A stretch of DNA of 64,000 bases from assembly GCA_045602545.1 (NCBI GenBank), contig JAZSBR010000033.1:14645-78644 (forward strand). The letters are read 5' to 3'. Below, one piece after another: positions 1,546 through 45,554 of the stretch (positions are counted from its first letter, which is position 1; every line of letters starts with the position of its first letter). A program made the translations under genes and the position numbers. This DNA is from Alphaproteobacteria bacterium (GTDB taxonomy: Bacteria; Pseudomonadota; Alphaproteobacteria; RF32; CAG-239). The notes below the pieces were generated by a model. That model was not told the DNA's origin. It was given only the letters and a program-made list of their open reading frames with translations, and did no database searches.

Positions 1546-1848
1546 TTTACAAATAAAAGTTTTTTTGTTATTCTGACAATAGAATGATGTAACATCATTT
1601 CAGAAACTTCGGTTTCGGGGCTTTGAACGGCTCTATATACTCAGAGGTACATAGATACAGTGTCCCTCGGATGCTGTTTTTTTGTATCTGAATATCCCCA
1701 CTTTGGGTGGGGAGCCTGCGTCGTATGTACAAGCATTTTAAATGCTAAAGGATGTAGGAGTCATTGCTGAGTATATGATTGTTCAACTCCCCGCCGCCTC
1801 AAAAAAGGTGGCTTTGTGTTTTTAAAAGTTTTTAGAAAGGACAATGAC
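1546..1848 (+). promoter_or_regulatory. Type A conserved structured 5' leader, copy 1 (candidate promoter TTTACA-N17-TATTCT at 1546-1574, then about 250 nt of structured RNA up to the start codon)
   Basis: About 75% identical to 11771..12077 upstream of a paralogous gene; shared blocks agaaacttcggtttcggggc, cagtgtccctc..gatgctgttttttt, tccccRcWttgGKtgggga hairpin, ttttaaaagttttWagaaaggacaatgaYatg; compensatory changes keep hairpins intact (agcatttt-aaatgct vs ggcttttt-aaagct). Confidence 0.55.
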
Positions 1849-2679: not shown

Positions 2680-3657
2680 TTACAATTTTTCAATCATCTT
2701 AGCGATTTCGGTGGAAGCATTTAGGGCTTTTTGCGGTTTGAAATCAAAAGCCGATTTATCTTCCAAAGCAATCGCACATTTTGCGTCATAAAGCGAATTC
2801 ACAAAGCGCAAATGCTTTTCGCTTAACCAATCCTTACCGCAGAAAACCCACAAAGGCTTTCCCGGACCCGTTGCCTCGCAACACATTGAAACCGAATCAC
2901 CGGTAACCACCAAATTATCGGCACAAGCCAAATATCCGCCGTAAGGATTTTCGCTTTTATCGCCCCACAAAAATGTGTGTTGTGGAATATCTTTTATTTG
3001 CTCCATAATGATTTTTTGGGCTTCTTCGCCCGTGCGCCTTGAGGTTGTAATCAAAATTGAACCGCCGATTTTTGCTTTCAGCTCTTTTAAGGCTTTGCCG
3101 AGAGCAAGTGCATTTTGCGCCGAAAACGGCTTATTTTTGATTGCCCCGCCGACAATAACCGCCGTCAGCGGACGTGGAAGCGATGAAAAAGTTTCGCTCC
3201 ATTTTGCGCGTTCTTTTTCCAAAAATTCAGCCGTTATCCGGTGTGGACAACCGACAATGTAGTGAATATTCTTCCCCTTGGCTTTTTTTCTGTCATGCTC
3301 CGGCACAATCATCAAATCAAAATCATTTTGCCCCGTTTTTCCGGAATACATAAGCTGAATCAATTTTGTTTTCGGCGACATTTTTTTGATATATCTGGCA
3401 ACCGGAACCGTGCGACGACTGATTGATAAAACATAATCGGGAAACGGCGCTTTTATTTGCTCGGCGTTTTTTTTCGTCAGTCCCAAAAGTGTGCGTCCTC
3501 TGATAAAGTTCGGCAATCCGGCAAATTTATTATATTCCAGATTTTTTTCCTCCACCTCAAACAGGTCTTTATTCAAGGCTCCGATAATTCCCATCGCCTG
3601 CCCCACACTGCCGCGACGATCATCCATTAACGACCAAAAAACTTTTTTCATTCGCAC
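2680..3657 (-). CDS. ELM1/DUF1022-family protein (GT-B-like fold, sometimes annotated nucleoside-diphosphate-sugar epimerase); function unknown
   Basis: 325 aa; ITTSRRT and CPHRI motifs recalled from the ELM1 (PF06258) family; assignment from memory only. Confidence 0.35.
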   Translation of the reverse strand: MRMKKVFWSLMDDRRGSVGQAMGIIGALNKDLFEVEEKNLEYNKFAGLPNFIRGRTLLGLTKKNAEQIKAPFPDYVLSISRRTVPVARYIKKMSPKTKLIQLMYSGKTGQNDFDLMIVPEHDRKKAKGKNIHYIVGCPHRITAEFLEKERAKWSETFSSLPRPLTAVIVGGAIKNKPFSAQNALALGKALKELKAKIGGSILITTSRRTGEEAQKIIMEQIKDIPQHTFLWGDKSENPYGGYLACADNLVVTGDSVSMCCEATGPGKPLWVFCGKDWLSEKHLRFVNSLYDAKCAIALEDKSAFDFKPQKALNASTEIAKMIEKL

Positions 3658-7427: not shown

Positions 7428-7439
7428 TTTAACAGCCCT

Positions 7440-7680
7440 TTCCTTAAAAAAATTAAGCCACTGAGCATAAAAGAAAAACCTCCGAACGGAGGTCGGAAGT
7501 TGACAACTATGATACGATTAATAGTGTAGTATATTTGATAGTACTGTCTTATTCTACTACCTTCCGACCATAAAGTCAGAAGTACACATATCGTATCGAG
7601 GTTGTCACACCTCCGAGCCTTTTATGCTCGTTTAAAAGGTTAACAAAAAAATTTTGCTTTGTAAAGAAAAAAATCTTGCC
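7440..7680 (-). promoter_or_regulatory. Type B conserved structured 5' leader, copy 1 (promoter region plus about 200-nt structured RNA), upstream of the minus-strand family gene
   Basis: Shares with 16470..16745 and 29790..30000 the blocks tctttacaaagcaaaattttttt (promoter), gagcataaaaggctcRgaggt ... cttttatgctc terminal stem, and ggtcggaagg/cttccgacc; several internal stems. Confidence 0.55.
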
Positions 7681-9729: not shown

Positions 9730-11747
9730 TTCGCCGTTTTTTGCACAGCATTTACCTTAATTTCACGGAAGAGCAATCTCGCCATTTTGCGCTTGTGCCG
9801 ATTTTTTTCGCACTCGGAATCGGGCTTTATTTTTCTCTTTCTTTTGAACCGCAATATTGGGTTTGCCTTGTTGTTATTGAAGCTTTGCTACTGATTTTTT
9901 ATTTTGCCCGCCATAAAGAGGCGCTTCATTTACCTTTATTTGCTTTGTTTTTAATAACTTTAGGATTTGCCGATGCTCAGCTTCATACGCTTTATCAAAG
10001 TCGGCGCATTGAAAAAATCAGCGATGTTGCAACCTACATTTCCGGTCGGGTTATTGATATTTCGCAAAGCGCAAAAGGCAAAACGCGCTATACTTTAGAT
10101 AATGCTTTTGATTTTGAAAAACCGCTGAAGGGCAATTTTCGCCTTACTTCAATGGCAAAAAATAATGATTTTGCCGTCGGCGATTGTGTTGAAACGGCGG
10201 CAAAACTTCTCGAAGCATCGCCTATACCGCTCAAAAATTCTTTTGATTTGAACCGAAAATATTTTTTTGAAGGCTTGAGTGCAACCGGCTATACTTTGGG
10301 CGATACGTTTAAGATATCTTGCCCCGAAAACATAAAAAAATCTTCCGTTTTAACGGCAATAAATTCCTTTCGCCACAAAACCGCCGAACACATAAATTCC
10401 GTTCTTCCGATTGATGAAGCAGGAGTGATTGATGCCGTTTTAATCGGCGAAAAAAGCTATATTCCGCAGAATATTGTCGACAATTATCGCAACTCCGGAC
10501 TTGCGCATTTTTTGGCTGTTTCAGGTTTGCATTTAGGAACAATCGCCGGACTTGTGTTTTTTCTGGTGCGTTGGCTGGTTTCATTTTTTCCCAAAATTGT
10601 TTTGCGTTATGAAAGCAAAAAAATCGCCGCACTTTTTGCCATTCTTTTTGCTTTTATTTATCTGCTGATTTCCGGCATGGCAATTCCGGCGGAGCGCGCC
10701 TTTATTATGACCACAACCGTTTTAGTCGGCGTGATTTTTAATCGTCAGGCCATATCTTTGCGCATGGTAAGCTTTGCCGCTTTGATGGTGCTGATAATTT
10801 CGCCGTCGGCACTGGTTTCGGTAAGTTTTCAAATGTCGTTTGCCGCCGTCACGGCTTTAGTGGTTTTTTATGAAAAATTCGCCGCCAAAATTTCAGCTTG
10901 GAGTTATGACAAGGGCGTCATCACAAAGTTTTTATATTACCTTATCGGGGTGGTTATTTGTGATTTTGTGGCAAGTCTTGCAACCTCTCCGTTTGCGGTT
11001 TATCATTTTCAGCGCCTTGCGATATACACAAGCTTGGGCAATCTTTTAGCCGGTCCGTTGATTGCTTTCTGGCTGATGCCGACAATTTTGCTGTGCCTTG
11101 TATCATTGCCTTTCGGAGCGTTAATTTATCCGCTGAAATTATTGGGCTATGGCATTGCAATATTAAATCGCATAACCGCCTATGTTTCCGCTTTACCGGG
11201 GAGTGTTTTGTATGTTCATTCTTTAGATTTCAGCGGATTTATGTTGATTGTCTCAGGCGCAATTTGGCTGTGCTTATGGCAAAAGAATTGGCGTTATTTC
11301 GGGCTTGTTGCCATCATGGCAGGCTGTCTGACGATGTTTTTTAAGCCCGTTCCCGATGCAATCATCTCATTTAACGGAGAAGGCGTTGCTTTGCGCGCGC
11401 AAAACGGCGAGATGATTTTGGCTCCGCTCGCTAAAGCTGATAATTGGACCAAAACCATCTGGCAAGAAAATTTTGGCTTAAAAATTCCCGATAAAAAAGA
11501 AAAAAAATATTTTCAAAAAATCTTTACCGGCAAAGAAAATCCGCAAGATTTTATTGATATAAAATGTGATAAAAACAAAAATTGCTTGTATAAGAATGCG
11601 CTTAAATTGAATGCTGACGGCACCATCTTTTTACAAGATAAAATGATAGATAAAAAATTCGGCGCTTATATTTATTTTGATGGCGACAAAACATCTTTTG
11701 AACCGCTGTTATCTCCGACTTGCCGTCCGTGGCAAATTTGCAAATAA
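9726..11747 (+). CDS. comEC: ComEC/Rec2 family competence membrane protein
   Basis: 673 aa polytopic membrane protein; HFLAVSGLHLG competence-domain motif; start overlaps the lpxB stop. Confidence 0.7.
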   Translation: MIRRFLHSIYLNFTEEQSRHFALVPIFFALGIGLYFSLSFEPQYWVCLVVIEALLLIFYFARHKEALHLPLFALFLITLGFADAQLHTLYQSRRIEKISDVATYISGRVIDISQSAKGKTRYTLDNAFDFEKPLKGNFRLTSMAKNNDFAVGDCVETAAKLLEASPIPLKNSFDLNRKYFFEGLSATGYTLGDTFKISCPENIKKSSVLTAINSFRHKTAEHINSVLPIDEAGVIDAVLIGEKSYIPQNIVDNYRNSGLAHFLAVSGLHLGTIAGLVFFLVRWLVSFFPKIVLRYESKKIAALFAILFAFIYLLISGMAIPAERAFIMTTTVLVGVIFNRQAISLRMVSFAALMVLIISPSALVSVSFQMSFAAVTALVVFYEKFAAKISAWSYDKGVITKFLYYLIGVVICDFVASLATSPFAVYHFQRLAIYTSLGNLLAGPLIAFWLMPTILLCLVSLPFGALIYPLKLLGYGIAILNRITAYVSALPGSVLYVHSLDFSGFMLIVSGAIWLCLWQKNWRYFGLVAIMAGCLTMFFKPVPDAIISFNGEGVALRAQNGEMILAPLAKADNWTKTIWQENFGLKIPDKKEKKYFQKIFTGKENPQDFIDIKCDKNKNCLYKNALKLNADGTIFLQDKMIDKKFGAYIYFDGDKTSFEPLLSPTCRPWQICK

Positions 11748-11770: not shown

Positions 11771-12077
11771 TTGACATCTGCTATTTTTTTTGCTAGTGTA
11801 ATATAAGAATGGCGGATACGCCGTTTTAAGAAACTTCGGTTTCGGGGCTGTAGCAGGCTCTTTGTCGATAGAGGTGCATTATTCAGTGTCCCTCTTGGAT
11901 GCTGTTTTTTTGTACCCAAAATCCCCGCATTGGTTGGGGAGATTATAGCGTATGTACAGGCTTTTTTAAAGCTAAAGGCTATAATAGTCATTACTATCGA
12001 CATGATTTGCTAACTCCCCGATCGCCTGCAATACCGGCGGTCTTTGAGTTTTAAAAGTTTTAAGAAAGGACAATGAT
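11771..12077 (+). promoter_or_regulatory. Type A conserved structured 5' leader, copy 2 (candidate promoter TTGACA-N17-TAGTGT at 11771-11799)
   Basis: Paralogous to 1546..1848; see copy 1. Confidence 0.55.
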
Positions 12078-12959
12078 ATGAAAAAGAAATTTAATAATGA
12101 ACACACGCCTAAATCAAGCGAGAATTGCGATAAATATTCCAAGAGTGTTTCGGTGGAAAAATTGTTGCAAATATCGCCTGTATTAAGGTTGGTAAAAGTT
12201 CTTGGTTTAGCGGCGGTTTTATCTTTAAATATAGTGAGCGAATCGCTGGCAGATTGCGAAAGACCAACCAATGGAATATGCAAAACACTTGGAGAAAAAG
12301 GCACTTGCGGCGAGGGTTGTTCTTATACTTATGATTCAGCTACGCAAACTGTTTACATAACCGCTACCGGTGATAATGCAAAAATTGCAGGAGCGGCTTT
12401 TCATAATTATTATTATGAAAATAATAGTATGCCGGCTCAAACTTTTATTATTAATGGTGCTATAAAAATCGGCAGTAATGCATTTAATTCACCCCAAAGA
12501 AAACTTATATCGGGAGCCGGAGGAGCATTGATTTTAACCGGAGTCAATCATGACGCATTCGGAAATGACACAACTTTATCAGGCACCATAATTATTCCGG
12601 AAGGAACAGAATTCGCTCCTCTTGCCTTTTACGGCGTAACTTTGGCAGATAATGCTAAAATATATTGCGGTGTAGAAGATTGCAAACAAAAAATGATTGA
12701 TTCTTGCAATGCTTGGGGACGTAATGAAAACGGAAATGTAACAAGTTGTCTTAATGCCGTGAACAATATGGGCAATAAATTACTTCCATATCCTGAAAAT
12801 TGCCTAAAGGTGGGAGCAATGGGTTGCACAAAGTGCAAAAATTCAAATTTCAAATTAAATGACGGCGAATGTGACAGACTGCGCTACACCCCTGCCGAGG
12901 CGGCTGAGGTTTTGCATAACGACAACACAAATTCGGTGACGATTACTTTCAAAAAATAA
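12078..12959 (+). CDS. secreted BspA-type LRR protein with conserved C-terminal domain (family member 3) and a conserved N-terminal pre-signal extension
   Basis: ATG 12078 with AAAGGA RBS; N-terminus MKKKFNNEHTPKSSENCDKYSKSVSVEKL matches the N-terminus of 6159..7427; signal-like VKVLGLAAVLSLNIVSESLA follows; C-terminus CTKCKNSNFKLNDGECDRLRYTPAEAAEVLHNDNTNSVTITFKK. Confidence 0.7.
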   Translation: MKKKFNNEHTPKSSENCDKYSKSVSVEKLLQISPVLRLVKVLGLAAVLSLNIVSESLADCERPTNGICKTLGEKGTCGEGCSYTYDSATQTVYITATGDNAKIAGAAFHNYYYENNSMPAQTFIINGAIKIGSNAFNSPQRKLISGAGGALILTGVNHDAFGNDTTLSGTIIIPEGTEFAPLAFYGVTLADNAKIYCGVEDCKQKMIDSCNAWGRNENGNVTSCLNAVNNMGNKLLPYPENCLKVGAMGCTKCKNSNFKLNDGECDRLRYTPAEAAEVLHNDNTNSVTITFKK

Positions 12960-16463: not shown

Positions 16464-16469
16464 TTGAAC

Positions 16470-16745
16470 ATTCCTTTTCTTAAAAAATTATACCACTTAA
16501 GCATAAAAGAAAATCGCCCAAAAAGGCGACTGGAAGCAGAAAACTATACAGATTAGATAGTGTGATTTATTCGCAAACCGAAGGGTTTCTTATTTCATCA
16601 CCTTCCAGCCATACGAATATGACTGAAAATAAAACTATCCCTACAAAAGGACAAATCTGTCTGAGGTTTTCTGACCTCCGAGCCTTTTATGCTCAATTAA
16701 AATGCTAGCAAAAAAATTTTGCTTTGTAAAGAGAAAAGTTAGAAA
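16470..16745 (-). promoter_or_regulatory. Type B conserved structured 5' leader, copy 2, with sigma70-like promoter TTTACA-N17-TAGCAT (complement 16702..16730)
   Basis: Paralogous to 7440..7680 and 29790..30000; terminal stem agcataaaag...cttttatgct. Confidence 0.55.
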
Positions 16746-29789: not shown

Positions 29790-30071
29790 TATTATTTTTT
29801 CTTTACAACACAAAATTTTTCTGCTAGCATTTCAGGTGAGCATAAAAGGCTCAGAGGTCTGATAGCCTCTAACACATTAGTCCTTTTCAGAGGATGGTTT
29901 TAATTTCAGTCATACGTTAAATATGACTGGAAGGTGGTGAAATAAGAAGGGGTAACCTTTACGAATAAATCACACTATCTAATGTGTTATAGTTATCAGC
30001 TTCCAGTCGCCTTTTTTGAGGGCGATTTTTCTTTTATGCGCGGTTTAATCTTTTTAAGAAAGGAAAAAATT
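29790..30071 (+). promoter_or_regulatory. Type B conserved structured 5' leader, copy 3, with sigma70-like promoter TTTACA-N17-TAGCAT (29802..29830)
   Basis: Reverse complement of the 16470..16745 element in the same orientation relative to its downstream gene; gagcataaaaggctcagaggt...ctggaaggtggtgaaataagaa...cttccagtcgcctttttt. Confidence 0.55.
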
Positions 30072-41361: not shown

Positions 41362-44300
41362 TTACATCAAATCCGGAACAGCCCCGACATCGCCCTGCGG
41401 AGATGATTGCTGTGTTGTTGCCGGAACATTTGATTGACGACGTTTACGCGTGTTTGCATTTGTCGGGTTGCTGGTTGTGAGCGAAGCCGGAGCAACCTCT
41501 TCTTCATATTCTTCGTCATAATCAACCTTATTTCCGCCACCTGATGAACCTTCACTTATAGTACCGGCGCGCGCATCAGTATTTTCTGAAGTCAAGCCTT
41601 TTTCCATGCTGTCAACTTCTCTTGCCTGACGCTCCTGATTACGCTTTTCGCTGTTAAGCCACAAATCCTCGTTCGGAAAAATGATGATTCTGGTACCGGC
41701 CGGAACATAAGTAACCGAACGAATTTTAACCTTGTCCTCCATCATATCATTAATCATTTTATCCATTTGTGCCAAAAATTCCGTACGAGCCTGATCAGCT
41801 GCACGGGCCTTATCATCTTCCGTTGTAGTACCGTTATTATTGGTTTTAGACCCACCGCTTGCTGCCGTAACATAAGAAATTGCACTAGATAATACGGTAG
41901 CGGCAAGAGGCTCGGCATATTTTTTCAAGAGTTGCTGATCCAAATAACCGATAGCGCCTGCACGACCTTGAGCATCGGCTGTTTGGGCCGAATTAAGCAA
42001 GAATTGCGCTCCGTCCGGACGAATAATTCTTTTCCATTCAATACCGATTTTAACGGCTCCGCCCGTATTTCCGCCGGTATTTGCTCCGCCACCGCTGACA
42101 GCACCGATAGCACGACTGCCGGCCGGAATAATTATGTTTCTGCCGTCTTCGGCATAAATATTTCGCTCAACAATTGCCGTTACCGGAATATTATCGCTAA
42201 ATCCTTCCGAGGCATAAACCGAACGAGCCAAAACTGCCGGAATCGGCTTGTCTTCCAAAATCATCTGGCTCATATCAACACGCCAGCTTGAAATATTTTT
42301 TTCAACTCCCGGCCAACCGTCTTCTTCATATCCGGTAAAGTTAGAAACTTCAAAGTTTGAAGAAATCGGCTTTACGGATATGTTTTTACGGCGCATCTGT
42401 TGCAATTCCGAAAGCGCTCTGGCACGATTCGGATCATATCTTTCGCCTTGACCGAAGCCACCGCCCGGTCCCAAGTTTGTAGGTTGCGAGCCTATACCAT
42501 AAGCGTTTCCGTTACCGAAAGCACCGGCCGGCACAAACATATTTTCAGCCGATGTGCGCTTAATTTCCTCAATACCGATAGGATTATAATCCATATCAAC
42601 AATAATTCCGTCCGATGTTCTGAAACCGATTTGCGTACCGTTTGCATCGCGCACCGTGTTATCATCATAAATATCACCGATAACATCTCCGTCCGGACTT
42701 AAAGCGATACCGATAATTTTTTTGCTCAAATCTTTTATTACGGACGAATCTTTACCTTTTGATTTTGAGGTTGTACGTTCATCTTGCACACCGACTTTTT
42801 TATTATCGGCCCAGCTGTCATCTCCGCGCAGATTTTTCAGACCTTGCCCTTGATAATATTGCAAAGGATAGGCGTTGGCAATTATATCTCCGTTTGAATT
42901 TTTGATTGCGCCGTTATCAGTGATATAGCCGATATTTTGATTTTCATAATCAATCACATTACCGTCAAAACCGAGTTCACCTAAGGCATTGTTACTGCTA
43001 TCTCTGATGGTATAATCACGATTTGCTCTGGCAACAACTTTGTTTTCACGATCTATCACAAAACCATGATCCAAAAATCCGAGCCTGCTTCCGACACTGC
43101 TCAAAACAGTTCCGTCTTTTGTAAAATAGCCGTATGTAATAAAGTTTTCATCATAGGCATAAAAATCATACATTGCATAACCGACAACTTCGCCCTTATT
43201 GACAACCGAGCCGTCAAAAGCAATTTGACCCACTGTTTTTCCGGCATCATCTACAACCGCACCGGAATTTTTCACCAATCCCAAAAACTTGTTTTGTTCA
43301 TCAAAAGCAACCTTATAGCGCATAACATTACCGAGAGTTTTTTTGGATTTTGAAACCACATTTCCATTCGGTTGCATATAACCGATAATCGCATTTTTGG
43401 CATTAACCGCGCTACCGTCTGCCTGAATTTGACCGATTATGTTGTTTTCAAAATCAATCACGGAATCTTGCGAAATAACACCATATTTCCACTTATTGGC
43501 ATCATCTTTGATAATTCCTTGACGATTGATACAACCGATATTGTTGCCGATATAATCCAAACCGCTTCCGTTGTTGACTACGCCTGCAAAGTTTCCGTTA
43601 AAATCAATCAAACCTTTTTGAAAAATACCATATCCGAGATAGCTTCCGACATCGGAAATTGCCTGTCCGTTCGGCAAAACTCTTCCGATAATAACTTCTC
43701 TTGAATTTACCACATCGCCATGACCGTTCATAACACCAAGATTATCGCATTTATCGTTTTGAACACTGATAAACGGCACTGCTTTTCCCACAACATTTGA
43801 AGAATTGTCCAAAACATAGTTGCCATAAACCACAAAACCTCTTGTATTTGAGTTTAAATCAGCAACTTTTCCGGCATTATTGACATATCCGAGCAAATCA
43901 CCGCTGTTGCTGACTGCAACCATGGTTTTTCCGGCATAGCCGGCAAGTGGCATTACATTGTTTTCAGATTGTCCGGCAGTAGCAACCACATAATTTTCCG
44001 GAGTTATTTTATAGGCAATATCCCCGTCTTTGTTCATTATAGTATTGTTATTCATCAAATAACCCAAACTTTCACCTTGCTGATTATATGAAAAGGCAAA
44101 ATTGAGCTTATCGGCAACAAAACCTTCTTTTCCGATTGCCATTCCGTTCGGCGAAACAGTAACATTATCAGACCCGCGATAAAGCGTTCCGTTCGGGGTA
44201 ATATTTGAATAAAAATTTCCTTCCAAGCTATACATCGGAGCCGTTTCAAAACCGGAACCGATAACTTTTTTCTCCGAGTTCAATAAATATCCGAACGGAG

Positions 44301-45552
44301 AAACCGTATTTTTATCATTTGCCAAACCCACTGTTCCGGATGTTTCAACCGTGCCGAGAGGCTTATTATAGGTATTGACTGCCAACATATTTTTGTTGAT
44401 ACCGCCAATCATCAGACCGTTTGTATCAAAGGCAAAATTATTAATCGTGCGCCCGATGGTATTTCCTCCGGTTGCCACCAGCGAGCCGTTATTCATACCC
44501 TCACCCTTTAATGAGCCAAGCACATCAAACACCGGACCGGTTTGAATTGCTTGTCCGATTAACTCGCCTTTATCATTATAAACATAGTTTTTTGCACCGA
44601 TATGCCCGATTGTTTCCGTGCCTTTAATTACATTTCCGTCCGGCACGACACGACCGATATATTTACCGTTCAAGTCAGAAACGGCGGAAGCAATATCCAA
44701 AGTATATCCTATAATTTTTCCGTTTTCATCAACAATCGTTCCATCACTGCGATAATGTCCGATTTCCTCGTTTGACGCATTTAATACCGTTCCGTTATAA
44801 CTGATAATACCTAAATATTTTCCCTTAACATCAAAAGCATATCCCGACATAACAACTCGGCCGATAATTTTTCCGCCTTCATCATAAACATATCCGTTGG
44901 CATGTACATTACCGACCTTTTTGGCTTCAAAGTCAATAACTTCACCTGAAGGAGAGATGCTACCCAAAAACTTTCCGTCGTTTGAAACAACCATTTTAGA
45001 CGAGATTAAACGACCATCAATAACATAACTGTCCGCCGTTTTACGATAAGCATAACCGCCGGCAGAAATAAAACCGAGTTCTTGTCCGTCCATATCGGTA
45101 TATGTTCCGGCACCGGTCATGCGGCCGACAACATTGCCGTCATCAGAATAAATTATTCCCGGAAACAAAATAGCGCCGATAATCTCGTCTTTATTATTGA
45201 TAACCAAACCATTCGGCAAACCGCGCCCCAAATCCTTGCCGGCAAAACTTCTCAAAACACCGTCGCTGTGCATTTTTCCCAAGAGCTTATTATCATAGCC
45301 GATAACAATACCTTGAGGCAAGACACCGCCCAAAATTTTTCCTTCATCATTAACAACCAAACTGTCCGCAGTGATATAACCGATATTTTCGCCATCGGAA
45401 TTGATAACCATACCGGAAGAAATCACCTGTCCGAGAACTTTTCCGTTAAAGTCAACCGTCGTAATTTCCGCCAAAGCAGATTTTACATAAGAAGTAAAAA
45501 ATGCCAAAGCAACTACGGACAGCTTAAAAATATGGTTACTGCTTTTGAACAT
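41362..45552 (-). CDS. virB10: giant VirB10: Sec signal + about 1000 aa of about 20-residue Gly/Asp beta-repeats + VirB10/TrbI C-terminal domain
   Basis: 1396 aa; signal peptide MFKSSNHIFKLSVVALAFFTSYVKSALA; repeats of the type G-x-[VI]-x-D-x-[ND]-G-x-[IL]-[IL]-G; C-terminal region ...PVTAIVERNIYAEDGRNIIIPAGSRAIGAVSG...IGIEWKRIIRPDGAQFLL...AGAIGYLDQQLL... reads as a VirB10/TrbI (PF03743-like) domain; Pro/Ser-rich acidic C-terminal tail. Confidence 0.7.
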   Translation of the reverse strand: MFKSSNHIFKLSVVALAFFTSYVKSALAEITTVDFNGKVLGQVISSGMVINSDGENIGYITADSLVVNDEGKILGGVLPQGIVIGYDNKLLGKMHSDGVLRSFAGKDLGRGLPNGLVINNKDEIIGAILFPGIIYSDDGNVVGRMTGAGTYTDMDGQELGFISAGGYAYRKTADSYVIDGRLISSKMVVSNDGKFLGSISPSGEVIDFEAKKVGNVHANGYVYDEGGKIIGRVVMSGYAFDVKGKYLGIISYNGTVLNASNEEIGHYRSDGTIVDENGKIIGYTLDIASAVSDLNGKYIGRVVPDGNVIKGTETIGHIGAKNYVYNDKGELIGQAIQTGPVFDVLGSLKGEGMNNGSLVATGGNTIGRTINNFAFDTNGLMIGGINKNMLAVNTYNKPLGTVETSGTVGLANDKNTVSPFGYLLNSEKKVIGSGFETAPMYSLEGNFYSNITPNGTLYRGSDNVTVSPNGMAIGKEGFVADKLNFAFSYNQQGESLGYLMNNNTIMNKDGDIAYKITPENYVVATAGQSENNVMPLAGYAGKTMVAVSNSGDLLGYVNNAGKVADLNSNTRGFVVYGNYVLDNSSNVVGKAVPFISVQNDKCDNLGVMNGHGDVVNSREVIIGRVLPNGQAISDVGSYLGYGIFQKGLIDFNGNFAGVVNNGSGLDYIGNNIGCINRQGIIKDDANKWKYGVISQDSVIDFENNIIGQIQADGSAVNAKNAIIGYMQPNGNVVSKSKKTLGNVMRYKVAFDEQNKFLGLVKNSGAVVDDAGKTVGQIAFDGSVVNKGEVVGYAMYDFYAYDENFITYGYFTKDGTVLSSVGSRLGFLDHGFVIDRENKVVARANRDYTIRDSSNNALGELGFDGNVIDYENQNIGYITDNGAIKNSNGDIIANAYPLQYYQGQGLKNLRGDDSWADNKKVGVQDERTTSKSKGKDSSVIKDLSKKIIGIALSPDGDVIGDIYDDNTVRDANGTQIGFRTSDGIIVDMDYNPIGIEEIKRTSAENMFVPAGAFGNGNAYGIGSQPTNLGPGGGFGQGERYDPNRARALSELQQMRRKNISVKPISSNFEVSNFTGYEEDGWPGVEKNISSWRVDMSQMILEDKPIPAVLARSVYASEGFSDNIPVTAIVERNIYAEDGRNIIIPAGSRAIGAVSGGGANTGGNTGGAVKIGIEWKRIIRPDGAQFLLNSAQTADAQGRAGAIGYLDQQLLKKYAEPLAATVLSSAISYVTAASGGSKTNNNGTTTEDDKARAADQARTEFLAQMDKMINDMMEDKVKIRSVTYVPAGTRIIIFPNEDLWLNSEKRNQERQAREVDSMEKGLTSENTDARAGTISEGSSGGGNKVDYDEEYEEEVAPASLTTSNPTNANTRKRRQSNVPATTQQSSPQGDVGAVPDLM

Positions 45553-45554
45553 CT

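Follow-up and report, generated by a model that had tools for sequence, protein, structure and literature searches.

The leader RNAs of phage antirepressor genes and the small RNA (sRNA) sRNA-Xcc1 are the closest described counterparts of the element studied here, a structured 5' leader, designated type A, that occurs twice in a stretch of 64,000 nucleotides (nt), hereafter the window, of contig JAZSBR010000033.1 from an Alphaproteobacteria bacterium. In the isrK leader of Salmonella, an inactive conformation with a long-range helix has an active alternative, and termination yields a short RNA that acts in trans (PMC4825925). RNase P releases the C4 RNA from a longer transcript by cutting at a GGW motif that marks the 5' end of the C4 closing stem (PMC5320573). 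sRNA-Xcc1 (RF02221) was found in Xanthomonas as a discrete RNA of 88 nt by rapid amplification of cDNA ends (RACE) and of ca. 100 nt on Northern blots (PMC2996969), and lies upstream of symE in Xanthomonas integron cassettes (bioRxiv 10.1101/2025.06.18.660453); in the literature it is also reported ahead of an ORF6N gene in APSE phages and, as tandem arrays, in islands of Xylella. Our results indicate that the type A regions belong, as AT-rich and divergent members, to a large family of structured leaders, ca. 200–250 nt in length; this family is related to sRNA-Xcc1 in architecture and, weakly, in sequence.

Type A leaders belong to a widespread RNA family

We scanned a metagenome collection with a pattern of 22 specified bases, made of the core of arm H5 (see below) and the GGGGAG that precedes it, and retrieved at least 120 loci from soil, peat, rhizosphere, marine and gut samples. 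These matches share the entire architecture of the element, beyond the pattern itself. The pattern was also present in 15 viral contigs (IMG/VR), and blastn with a typical member retrieved 247 plasmids from PLSDB, among them 103 from Agrobacterium, 60 from Rhizobium and 19 from Bradyrhizobium; 205 of the 247 records are conjugative plasmids. A covariance model, R1, was built from 46 metagenome members, none of them from the lineage of the window, and defines, together with alignment A6, what we call the alpha-type sRNA-Xcc1-like leader family. R1 matches both type A regions over its full length (model positions 1–151), at 1617–1796 (copy 1; 57 bits, E 2e-11) and 11844–12023 (copy 2; 63 bits, E 7e-13) of the window. 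It matches 98 sites in 100 sources, and scores plasmid and viral members at 93–134 bits.

Both copies also carry the features that characterize the family. The closing helix is present and completely compensated, in segments of 10 and 6 base pairs (bp) in copy 1 and of 9 and 5 bp in copy 2; the internal loop of H5, CGUAUGUNCA/CUAAAGG, is exact; the conserved GGGGAG has two alternative C-rich partners, C2 upstream and C3 (CUCCCC) downstream; and an open reading frame (ORF) follows shortly on the same strand. Copies additional to the two described in an earlier note on this DNA are thus found widely. The element is not, as that note had it, a two-copy structure peculiar to a surface-protein family, because the RNA family precedes highly diverse genes and occurs also on plasmids and prophages. 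In genome contigs, the 19-mer GAAACTTCGGTTTCGGGGC yielded only 12 unrelated chance matches, and text searches with the core sequence or related terms found no description of the family within an incomplete coverage of the literature.

One full-length member (112.6 bits; L159:3015–3167) is located ca. 60 nt upstream of traM in plasmid pS11L-2 of Bradyrhizobium japonicum. TraM is the anti-activator of TraR in the quorum-sensing control of conjugation. Members are also found in close-set pairs on one contig, either 530 nt (L085:725–868 and 1253–1397) or 2.9 kb apart (L149:7494–7641 and 10411–10559), with a variable helix private to each member; these pairs recall the tandem copies of sRNA-Xcc1 reported in Xylella.

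Covariation supports a main fold with a copy-specific closing stem

A common minimum free energy (MFE) fold was obtained for 10 of 10 single sequences, which included both window copies, gut and rumen relatives, and typical GC-rich members. In this main fold, a 5' hairpin (H1) precedes a closing stem that leads to a four-way junction with arms H3 (variable), H4 (CCCC..GGGG) and H5, whose internal loop is invariant in the family. The closing stem, of ca. 20 bp, combines a conserved GGGG/CCCC clamp with two helices private to each copy, b1:b' and a1:a'. A reading of the H5 loop as a CsrA consensus was dropped, because its GGA core is not conserved.

The claim of the earlier note that the RNA is structured was borne out in a model-based alignment of 96 distinct sequences, where pairing is possible in 88.7% of the cells and 36 of 49 pairs show double-sided changes (913 cells). 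The covariation score was 0.516, compared with 0.18 for shuffled alignments (none of 500 reached the observed value) and no more than 0.10 when the partners were slid by 1–3 columns. For instance, column pair 10/268 is AU (33), GC (33), CG (17) or UA (12). Helices 1, 2 and 4, of the closing stem, covary across the family, and helix 10, in H5, is paired in 97.5% of cases, with changes on both sides in seven of its eight pairs. In an alignment-free comparison, duplexes between the variable 5' and 3' segments had a mean energy of −23.3 kcal/mol for cognate partners and of −12.1 kcal/mol for swapped partners, indicating that the long helix is copy-specific; the values for the closing helices in the window are −21.3 and −22.9 kcal/mol.

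A second fold, mutually exclusive with the first, comprises a local GGGG..CCCC hairpin, a 10-bp helix, Px, of GG.CGGGGAG with CUCCCCG.CC, and a local hairpin, H6; the sRNA-Xcc1 model of Rfam represents this three-way junction. The second fold is 96.4% pairable, shows double changes in 9 of 18 pairs, and is the structure returned by RNAalifold on a plain MAFFT alignment. Two dinucleotides, the AG in GGGGAG and the CU in CUCCCC, are invariant although unpaired in the main fold, and pair together in Px. In folds of growing transcripts, the local hairpins appear first, followed by a global refolding to the closing stem once the a'b' segment emerges and then by a terminator-like hairpin, T2.

The two type A leaders of the window

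Positions 1546–1848 and 11775–12077 of the window share 215 identical residues over 297 ungapped columns (72%) in a global alignment, where the earlier note gave ca. 75%; mean column identity was 84% in a MAFFT alignment with slightly wider limits. Three exact repeats, AGAAACTTCGGTTTCGGGGCT (at 1602 and 11829), GGATGCTGTTTTTTTGTA (1669 and 11897) and TTTTAAAAGTTTTWAGAAAGGACAATGA (1820 and 12049), occur only twice each in the window, with ca. 0 occurrences expected by chance. All of the conserved blocks and stems named in that note are present in both copies, and the N-termini of the two downstream proteins, said to carry differing signal peptides, are indeed dissimilar. The exchange of the stem AGCATTT/AAATGCT for GCTTT/AAAGC is likewise genuine, and is one among many compensated helices. 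These include hairpin P0, with ATGATG/CATCAT in copy 1 and ATGGCG/CGCCGT in copy 2; an 8-bp helix, CCTGCGTC/GATGTAGG in copy 1 and ATTATAGC/GCTATAAT in copy 2; and the long-range pair of ATATACTCAG (1635–1644) with CTGAGTATAT (1767–1776), replaced in copy 2 by TGTCGATAG with CTATCGACA. Neither this long-range helix, nor a second terminator (1793–1812 plus a U-rich tail), nor the broad distribution of the element is mentioned in that note.

All features of both copies are on the + strand. In copy 1, a promoter-like site, TTTACA-N17-TATTCT (1546–1574), was called by the promoter scan and is conserved in position with respect to copy 2; from it, we infer a transcription start near 1581. Hairpins P0, AATGATG-TAA-CATCATT (1583–1599), compensated in copy 2, and H1, GAAAC-UUCG-GUUUC (1603–1616), compensated to GAACC/GGTTC in locus L013 and to GAACCT/AGGTTC in L015, both form in the MFE structures of growing transcripts. 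The 5' strand of the closing stem (1617–1644), with which the model match begins, contains G1 (GGGG, 1617–1620), b1 (TTGAAC, 1623–1628) and a1 (1635–1644), and pairs with 1767–1792. Arm H3, which coincides with a terminator-like structure, T1, called by the terminator scan, is formed by ACAGTGTCC-CTC-GGATGCTGT followed by U7 (1657–1683); in the MFE fold, the U-run pairs with AUAGAUA and lengthens the arm. In H4 (1696–1714; helices 7–9), C2 (CCCCAC, 1696–1701) pairs with the GTGGGG of G2, GGGTGGGGAG (1705–1714), whose alternative partner is 1787–1796 in Px; this helix is 97% pairable across the family, with compensated flank positions. H5 (1715–1758) has an 8-bp outer helix, compensated throughout between the copies, an internal loop, GUAUGUACA/AAAG, and an inner hairpin, AGCAT..ATGCT. 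The 3' strand of the closing stem (1759–1792) contains a' (1767–1776), b' (GTTCAA, 1781–1786) and C3 (CTCCCC, 1787–1792), and overlaps the alternative local hairpin H6, TCAT/ATGA (1761–1778). T2, GCCGCC-TCAAAAAA-GGTGGC followed by TTTGTGTTTTT (1793–1823, hairpin at 1793–1812), comes next, and its first 3–4 bases double as the 3' flank of Px. The conserved translation-initiation block (1820–1851) includes a Shine-Dalgarno (SD) sequence, AAAGGA (1836–1841), and the ATG (1849–1851) of gene 1849–2676.

Copy 2 follows the same plan. Its promoter-like site, TTGACA-N17-TAGTGT (11771–11799), can be read from the sequence and aligns with that of copy 1, although it was below the rule of the scan and was not called; hence, of the promoters proposed for each copy, only the first was found by the program. 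The structured leader (11808–12019) consists of P0 (11808–11825), H1 (11830–11843), G1 (from 11844), b1 (11851–11855), a1 (11863–11871), H3 or T1 (11884–11904 plus U7), C2 (11923–11928), G2 (11932–11941), H5 (11942–11985), H6 with a' (11988–12005), b' (12008–12012) and C3 (12014–12019). T2, GATCGCC-TGCAATACC-GGCGGTC followed by TTTGAGTTTT, has a stem of seven pairs and a 9-nt loop (hairpin at 12020–12042), and is followed by the conserved initiation block, up to 12080, with the ATG (12078) of gene 12078–12959. The start codons are located 57 nt (copy 1) and 59 nt (copy 2) past C3. T2 was called by the terminator scan in copy 1 and by a custom script in both copies; the hairpin and U-run that the earlier note described as terminator-like, T1, was called by the scan in both (1657–1677 and 11884–11904). 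The promoter scan detected no promoter-like site between T2 and the start codon in either copy, so that expression from the leader would require read-through of T2.

Tiny ORFs occur within P0, at the extreme 5' end of both leaders, ATG ATG TAA (1585–1593) in copy 1 and ATG GCG GAT ACG CCG TTT TAA (11810–11830) in copy 2. They are probably incidental, because L015 has none. Secreted proteins are encoded 3' of both copies, one of which (gene 1849–2676) has a BspA-type leucine-rich repeat (LRR) domain.

Family members precede diverse genes and vary in their output

An SD sequence, a start codon and an open frame were found within 200 nt on the same strand for 99 of 121 distinct members with enough flank (82%), compared with 22 of 114 control flanks (19%). 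These genes encode MarR and helix-turn-helix (HTH) regulators, TraM, GGDEF/PAS proteins, lipoproteins and many products without any Pfam match; on plasmids, members are just upstream of same-strand genes for MarR regulators, HTH regulators or TraM. We rejected a common function for the downstream genes, since the 61 ORFs inspected mostly lack a Pfam match and no family appears in more than three.

The output module varies by lineage, being either a terminator or the SD region. A terminator-like hairpin starts within 45 nt of C3 in 25 of the 121 members and in one of the 114 control flanks; in the AT-rich gut and rumen subgroup, it starts 0–2 nt past CUCCCC in 7 of 10. The SD is within 40 nt of CUCCCC in 33 of the 121 members, and in a rough comparison ca. 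75% of the SDs are G-rich (GGGGAG-like) and complementary to CUCCCC, versus 30% for other ORFs of the same loci. Many members have an additional hairpin, with a conserved GGGCGYA loop, ahead of the SD. In GC-rich members (e.g., L024, L021 and L149), it is located 20–60 nt past CUCCCC and has a covarying stem; the H1 loop of these members is a conserved ACGCRC, complementary to the GGGCGYA loop over 4 nt (ACGC/GCGU), which suggests a possible kissing contact between both loops. Neither loop occurs in type A.

We also considered whether a variable loop might target the downstream ribosome-binding site (RBS), as in C4. This was rejected for type A and for the alpha-type family, and holds only for the Escherichia coli members of RF02221 (see below): cognate and swapped duplexes had equal energies in a family-wide test of the RBS site, and there is no second copy of a1 near the start codons of the window.

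Relationship with sRNA-Xcc1, IsrK and C4

At gathering thresholds, Rfam 15 gave no match in the window or in 20 family loci; the element is therefore not identified as a known one at threshold, although there is a reproducible relation to RF02221 below it. sRNA-Xcc1 is the sole recurrent weak match and always covers the domain from Px through H5 to H6; the cut-off is 53 bits, and the scores were 18.2 bits for copy 1 (1706–1803) and 27–32 bits for 7 of another 18 loci. In the cmscan alignment, all three helices of RF02221, that is, the closing stem and two arms, with the asymmetric internal loop, are placed on copy 1. Both RNAs form a three-way junction whose closing helix is GG.CGGGG../..CCCCG.CC; the first arm contains an internal loop that is asymmetric and rich in A and U, and the second arm is short. 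Both are also located just upstream of a same-strand gene (antB, ORF6N or BRO-N for sRNA-Xcc1, and symE in Xanthomonas). They differ in the sequence of the internal loop (UAAUACAAUA/GAAAUA versus CGUAUGUCCA/UAAAG), and the sRNA-Xcc1 model is only 87 nt long and is described as a trans-acting sRNA. R1 gave no match to E. coli members of RF02221 at E ≤ 1.

A blast search with the RF02221 consensus showed that true members (79.8 bits) are carried by E. coli prophages; they were present in 223 of 5,426 genomes and lie upstream of antB, ORF6N or BRO-N antirepressor-type genes of Stx phages. These members share further features with the leaders of the window: a promoter; a GG..CC hairpin, whose loop pairs downstream; a segment a1b1 complementary to the loop of H6 (the second arm); and a mid-leader hairpin followed by U7. 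This indicates that the leader extends beyond the 87-nt Rfam model, which corresponds to its 3' half. At the SD there is a third copy of the variable sequence (a2b2), which covaries between two phages (CAAGUAG versus UGCAAAG) and is lacking in type A. The a1b1/a'b'/a2b2 logic of these E. coli members is that of the C4 RNA of phage P1.

The leaders of the IsrK/C4 type (RF01394 and RF01695; P1, P7, Gifsy-1 and Stx prophages) resemble type A in having their own promoter, a 5' part that pairs at long range with a three-stem domain, two alternative conformations, one of them inactive, and a terminator within the leader, which in IsrK/C4 yields a short RNA, as T1 may do in type A. Specificity derives from the variable loops a' and b', and the IsrK/C4 modules are positioned before antirepressor-type genes (PMC4825925, PMC5320573). 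In particular, an upstream complementary copy, a1b1, on the same transcript and a long-range structure of the inactive type are present in type A, as in C4 and IsrK. The output differs: in IsrK/C4, the RBS is occluded at a2b2 or orf45, and type A, which has no such site, carries a terminator. Neither RF01695 nor RF01394 matched the window at the gathering threshold or at E ≤ 10, although both models detected an Stx-phage control. Px begins with GGU in most members of the family, with GGUU in copy 2 and with GGGU in copy 1.

Leaders of both kinds may occur in tandem. In a Stx prophage of E. coli O104:H4 (L141), a Rha-family gene is preceded by isrK (61.8 bits) and C4 (77.4 bits), at 1963–2150, and the next gene (ORF6N, antB2) by an sRNA-Xcc1 element (79.6 bits), at 2986–3069. 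Likewise, of two adjacent antirepressor-type genes in P13374-type prophages, one is preceded by isrK plus C4 and the other, at the equivalent position, by an RF02221 leader.

Type A also has parallels among conventional terminator/antiterminator leaders, in that Px shares 3–4 bases with the 5' strand of an intrinsic terminator and the output module, terminator or SD masking, is exchangeable. It departs from them in that its sensor-like domain is closed by an unusually long, copy-specific helix.

Possible mechanism and alternative explanations

The leader probably switches the downstream gene on or off. The reading that we favour, which we hold with about even confidence, is that type A is a cis-acting two-state attenuator with a logic closest to that of the phage IsrK/C4 antirepressor leaders. 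The earlier note had described it as cis-regulatory and attenuator-like; what stands of this is a structured RNA, in a 5' leader, with terminator-like hairpins, and what does not is the attenuator proposed there, because T1 is arm H3 of the four-way junction, and its U-run is missing in most family members, being found in the AT-rich subgroup and in the E. coli phage members and not in those rich in GC. The regulated terminator is more likely to be T2. Polymerases that start at the leader promoter would then have to pass T2 for the surface protein to be expressed. The thermodynamically favoured fold, with the closing stem and T2, would be the off state, and the formation of Px, or the occupation of a1b1, would weaken T2 and let the polymerase pass. 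T1 might release a short RNA of ca. 100 nt carrying a1b1, and this RNA, by analogy with short IsrK in Salmonella, could target the read-through transcripts of its own gene.

Several results weigh against a two-state attenuator of this type. The closing-stem state is 12–21 kcal/mol more stable than a forced Px state, so that the equilibrium favours the off fold and switching must be kinetic or driven by a factor. The covariation specific to the second fold is modest, with nearly invariant strands, and the U-run of T1 can be explained as the 3' strand of an extended H3 arm. Furthermore, type A lacks the RBS-proximal a2b2 that makes sense of the phage members, and this site is no general feature of the family. 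Finally, the discrete 88-nt sRNA-Xcc1 obtained by RACE fits a processed or stand-alone RNA at least equally well (PMC2996969).

This last observation leads to the main rival explanation, which we consider somewhat unlikely: the element would be a stand-alone sRNA gene, producing either an RNA of ca. 240 nt, from the promoter to T2, or a processed three-way-junction RNA of ca. 90 nt, that acts in trans, the downstream gene being a mere neighbour reached by leaky read-through. Its own promoter, the two terminator-like sites and a most stable fold that is a compact four-way junction would all suit such a gene, and so would the ca. 100-nt band of sRNA-Xcc1 on Northern blots. Processing is also conceivable, in that RNase P cuts C4 at GGW (PMC5320573) and Px in typical members starts with GGU, followed by ACCA; type A, however, lacks the ACCA tail. 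A mere neighbour would not be expected at the short, lineage-specific distances at which a same-strand ORF follows the family (82% versus 19% in controls), nor would output modules that vary by lineage and SDs that are complementary to the conserved CUCCCC. Within the window, moreover, there is no space for a separate promoter ahead of the genes, and the a'b' of each copy is private and matches only its own a1b1.

Invariant unpaired nucleotides (CGUAUGUNCA/CUAAAGG and the junction bases), covarying stems, alternative folds and several expression platforms are also what a riboswitch would display, in which the junction and the H5 loop would bind a small molecule or second messenger and thereby stabilise the closing stem, deciding between terminator or SD masking, on the one hand, and Px, on the other. 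The diverse regulon, enriched in genes for signalling, surface and regulator proteins, recalls that of GEMM. We nevertheless regard a riboswitch as quite unlikely: the closing stem, of ca. 20 bp and ca. −23 kcal/mol, is far above a typical P1 and leaves little for a ligand to contribute, the downstream genes do not suggest any common metabolite, and the frequent location on plasmids, in prophages and in relatives of integron type agrees better with the regulation of mobile elements. Those same locations, on conjugative plasmids and in prophages, the relatives in integron cassettes (bioRxiv 10.1101/2025.06.18.660453) and the differing leader types of homologous genes (see below) might instead point to an element acting as DNA, such as a repeat similar to a miniature inverted-repeat transposable element (MITE), a recombination site, a single-strand origin or the remnant of an upstream duplication. 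This we find highly improbable. Helix sequences turn over while pairing is kept and loops remain invariant, the opposite of what is expected from a recently spread repeat; many conserved G-U pairs are strand-specific (e.g., GU in 88 cases at columns 182/218 and in 57 at 155/280); there is a UUCG tetraloop, and both orientation and distance to the downstream start codon are fixed; and terminal inverted repeats and target duplications are lacking.

Going beyond the two-state attenuator, the members of the family could be self-addressed RNA switches, in which a1b1/a'b' is a private address and the short RNA from the internal terminator activates or silences only read-through transcripts of its own gene. 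This is an unlikely extension. If true, it would provide individual bistable control of accessory genes, such as plasmid traM, MarR-type regulators, prophage morons or, in gut Alphaproteobacteria, paralogous BspA-like surface proteins, and an RNA-based route to variable expression of individual surface-protein paralogues; sRNA-Xcc1, at present regarded as a virulence sRNA that acts in trans, would then represent the 3' half of a leader of this kind.

Close relatives, other leader types and neighbouring genes

Type A leaders again precede members of the surface-protein family in gut and rumen relatives (L013, L015, L067 and L081). A contig from wolf gut contains a syntenic orthologue of copy 2, with a compensated change from GAAAC/GTTTC to GAACC/GGTTC, and a contig of the metagenome-assembled genome (MAG) GCA_017484225.1 has a homologous gene whose type A leader is more diverged, with the long-range helix TATCCAGAG/CTCTGGATA.

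Other members of the surface-protein family have a different leader, type B, found in the window at 7428–7672 (−), 16464–16737 (−) and 29795–29981 (+), and also at L014:595–927, L016:450–716 and L019:60–440. Its sequence is unrelated to type A and has no match in Rfam, but it follows the same plan, with a promoter, two 5' hairpins, a covarying long-range helix and a terminator. It also has a CUGGAAG/CUUCCAG helix and, reaching across the terminator, an additional outer pairing, GAGCAUAAAAGG/CUUUUAUGCUC. In a related MAG, an LRR_5 gene has a leader of a third type, C (L015:12278–12560, −), with the long-range helix UUUAGUAAAAAC/GUUUUUACUAAA, a helix GCGGAUGU/ACAUCCGC and a terminator. We rejected types B and C as detectable relatives of type A, because R1 did not match them at E ≤ 10 and the likeness is in layout only. 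Close homologues of the copy 2 protein mostly carry type B and not type A; for instance, in a comparison of L014:595–1935 with window 11775–12959, the protein is 65% identical to that of copy 2 and yet has a type B leader. Because proteins with this level of identity carry different leader types, recombination within the gene family has brought leaders and coding regions into new combinations.

The genes adjoining the element in the window include those for LpxI, LpxB, ComEC and an ELM1-like protein; together with named homologues, they suggest that the DNA comes from a gut alphaproteobacterium that is uncultured. Positions 41362–49346 (−) of the window contain two giant ORFs, of 1,396 and 1,263 amino acids, made of periodic repeats of 51 and 153 nt, which probably encode repeat-rich surface or adhesin proteins.

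Implications

At least two BspA-type surface proteins of this organism are probably gated by type A leaders, and two further leader types of the same plan are found on other paralogues of the surface-protein family. If the family is as it appears, it represents a large structured RNA with unusually clear covariation that has gone largely unnoticed, the catalogue containing only a short and distant model, sRNA-Xcc1. It is common on conjugative plasmids of Agrobacterium, Rhizobium and Bradyrhizobium, in prophages and in environmental Alphaproteobacteria, and its culturable carriers would allow direct tests of the mechanism, for example with the traM leader of quorum-regulated plasmids. The family would thus connect sRNA-Xcc1, the IsrK/C4 antirepressor leaders of phages and the 5' regions of many orphan accessory genes.

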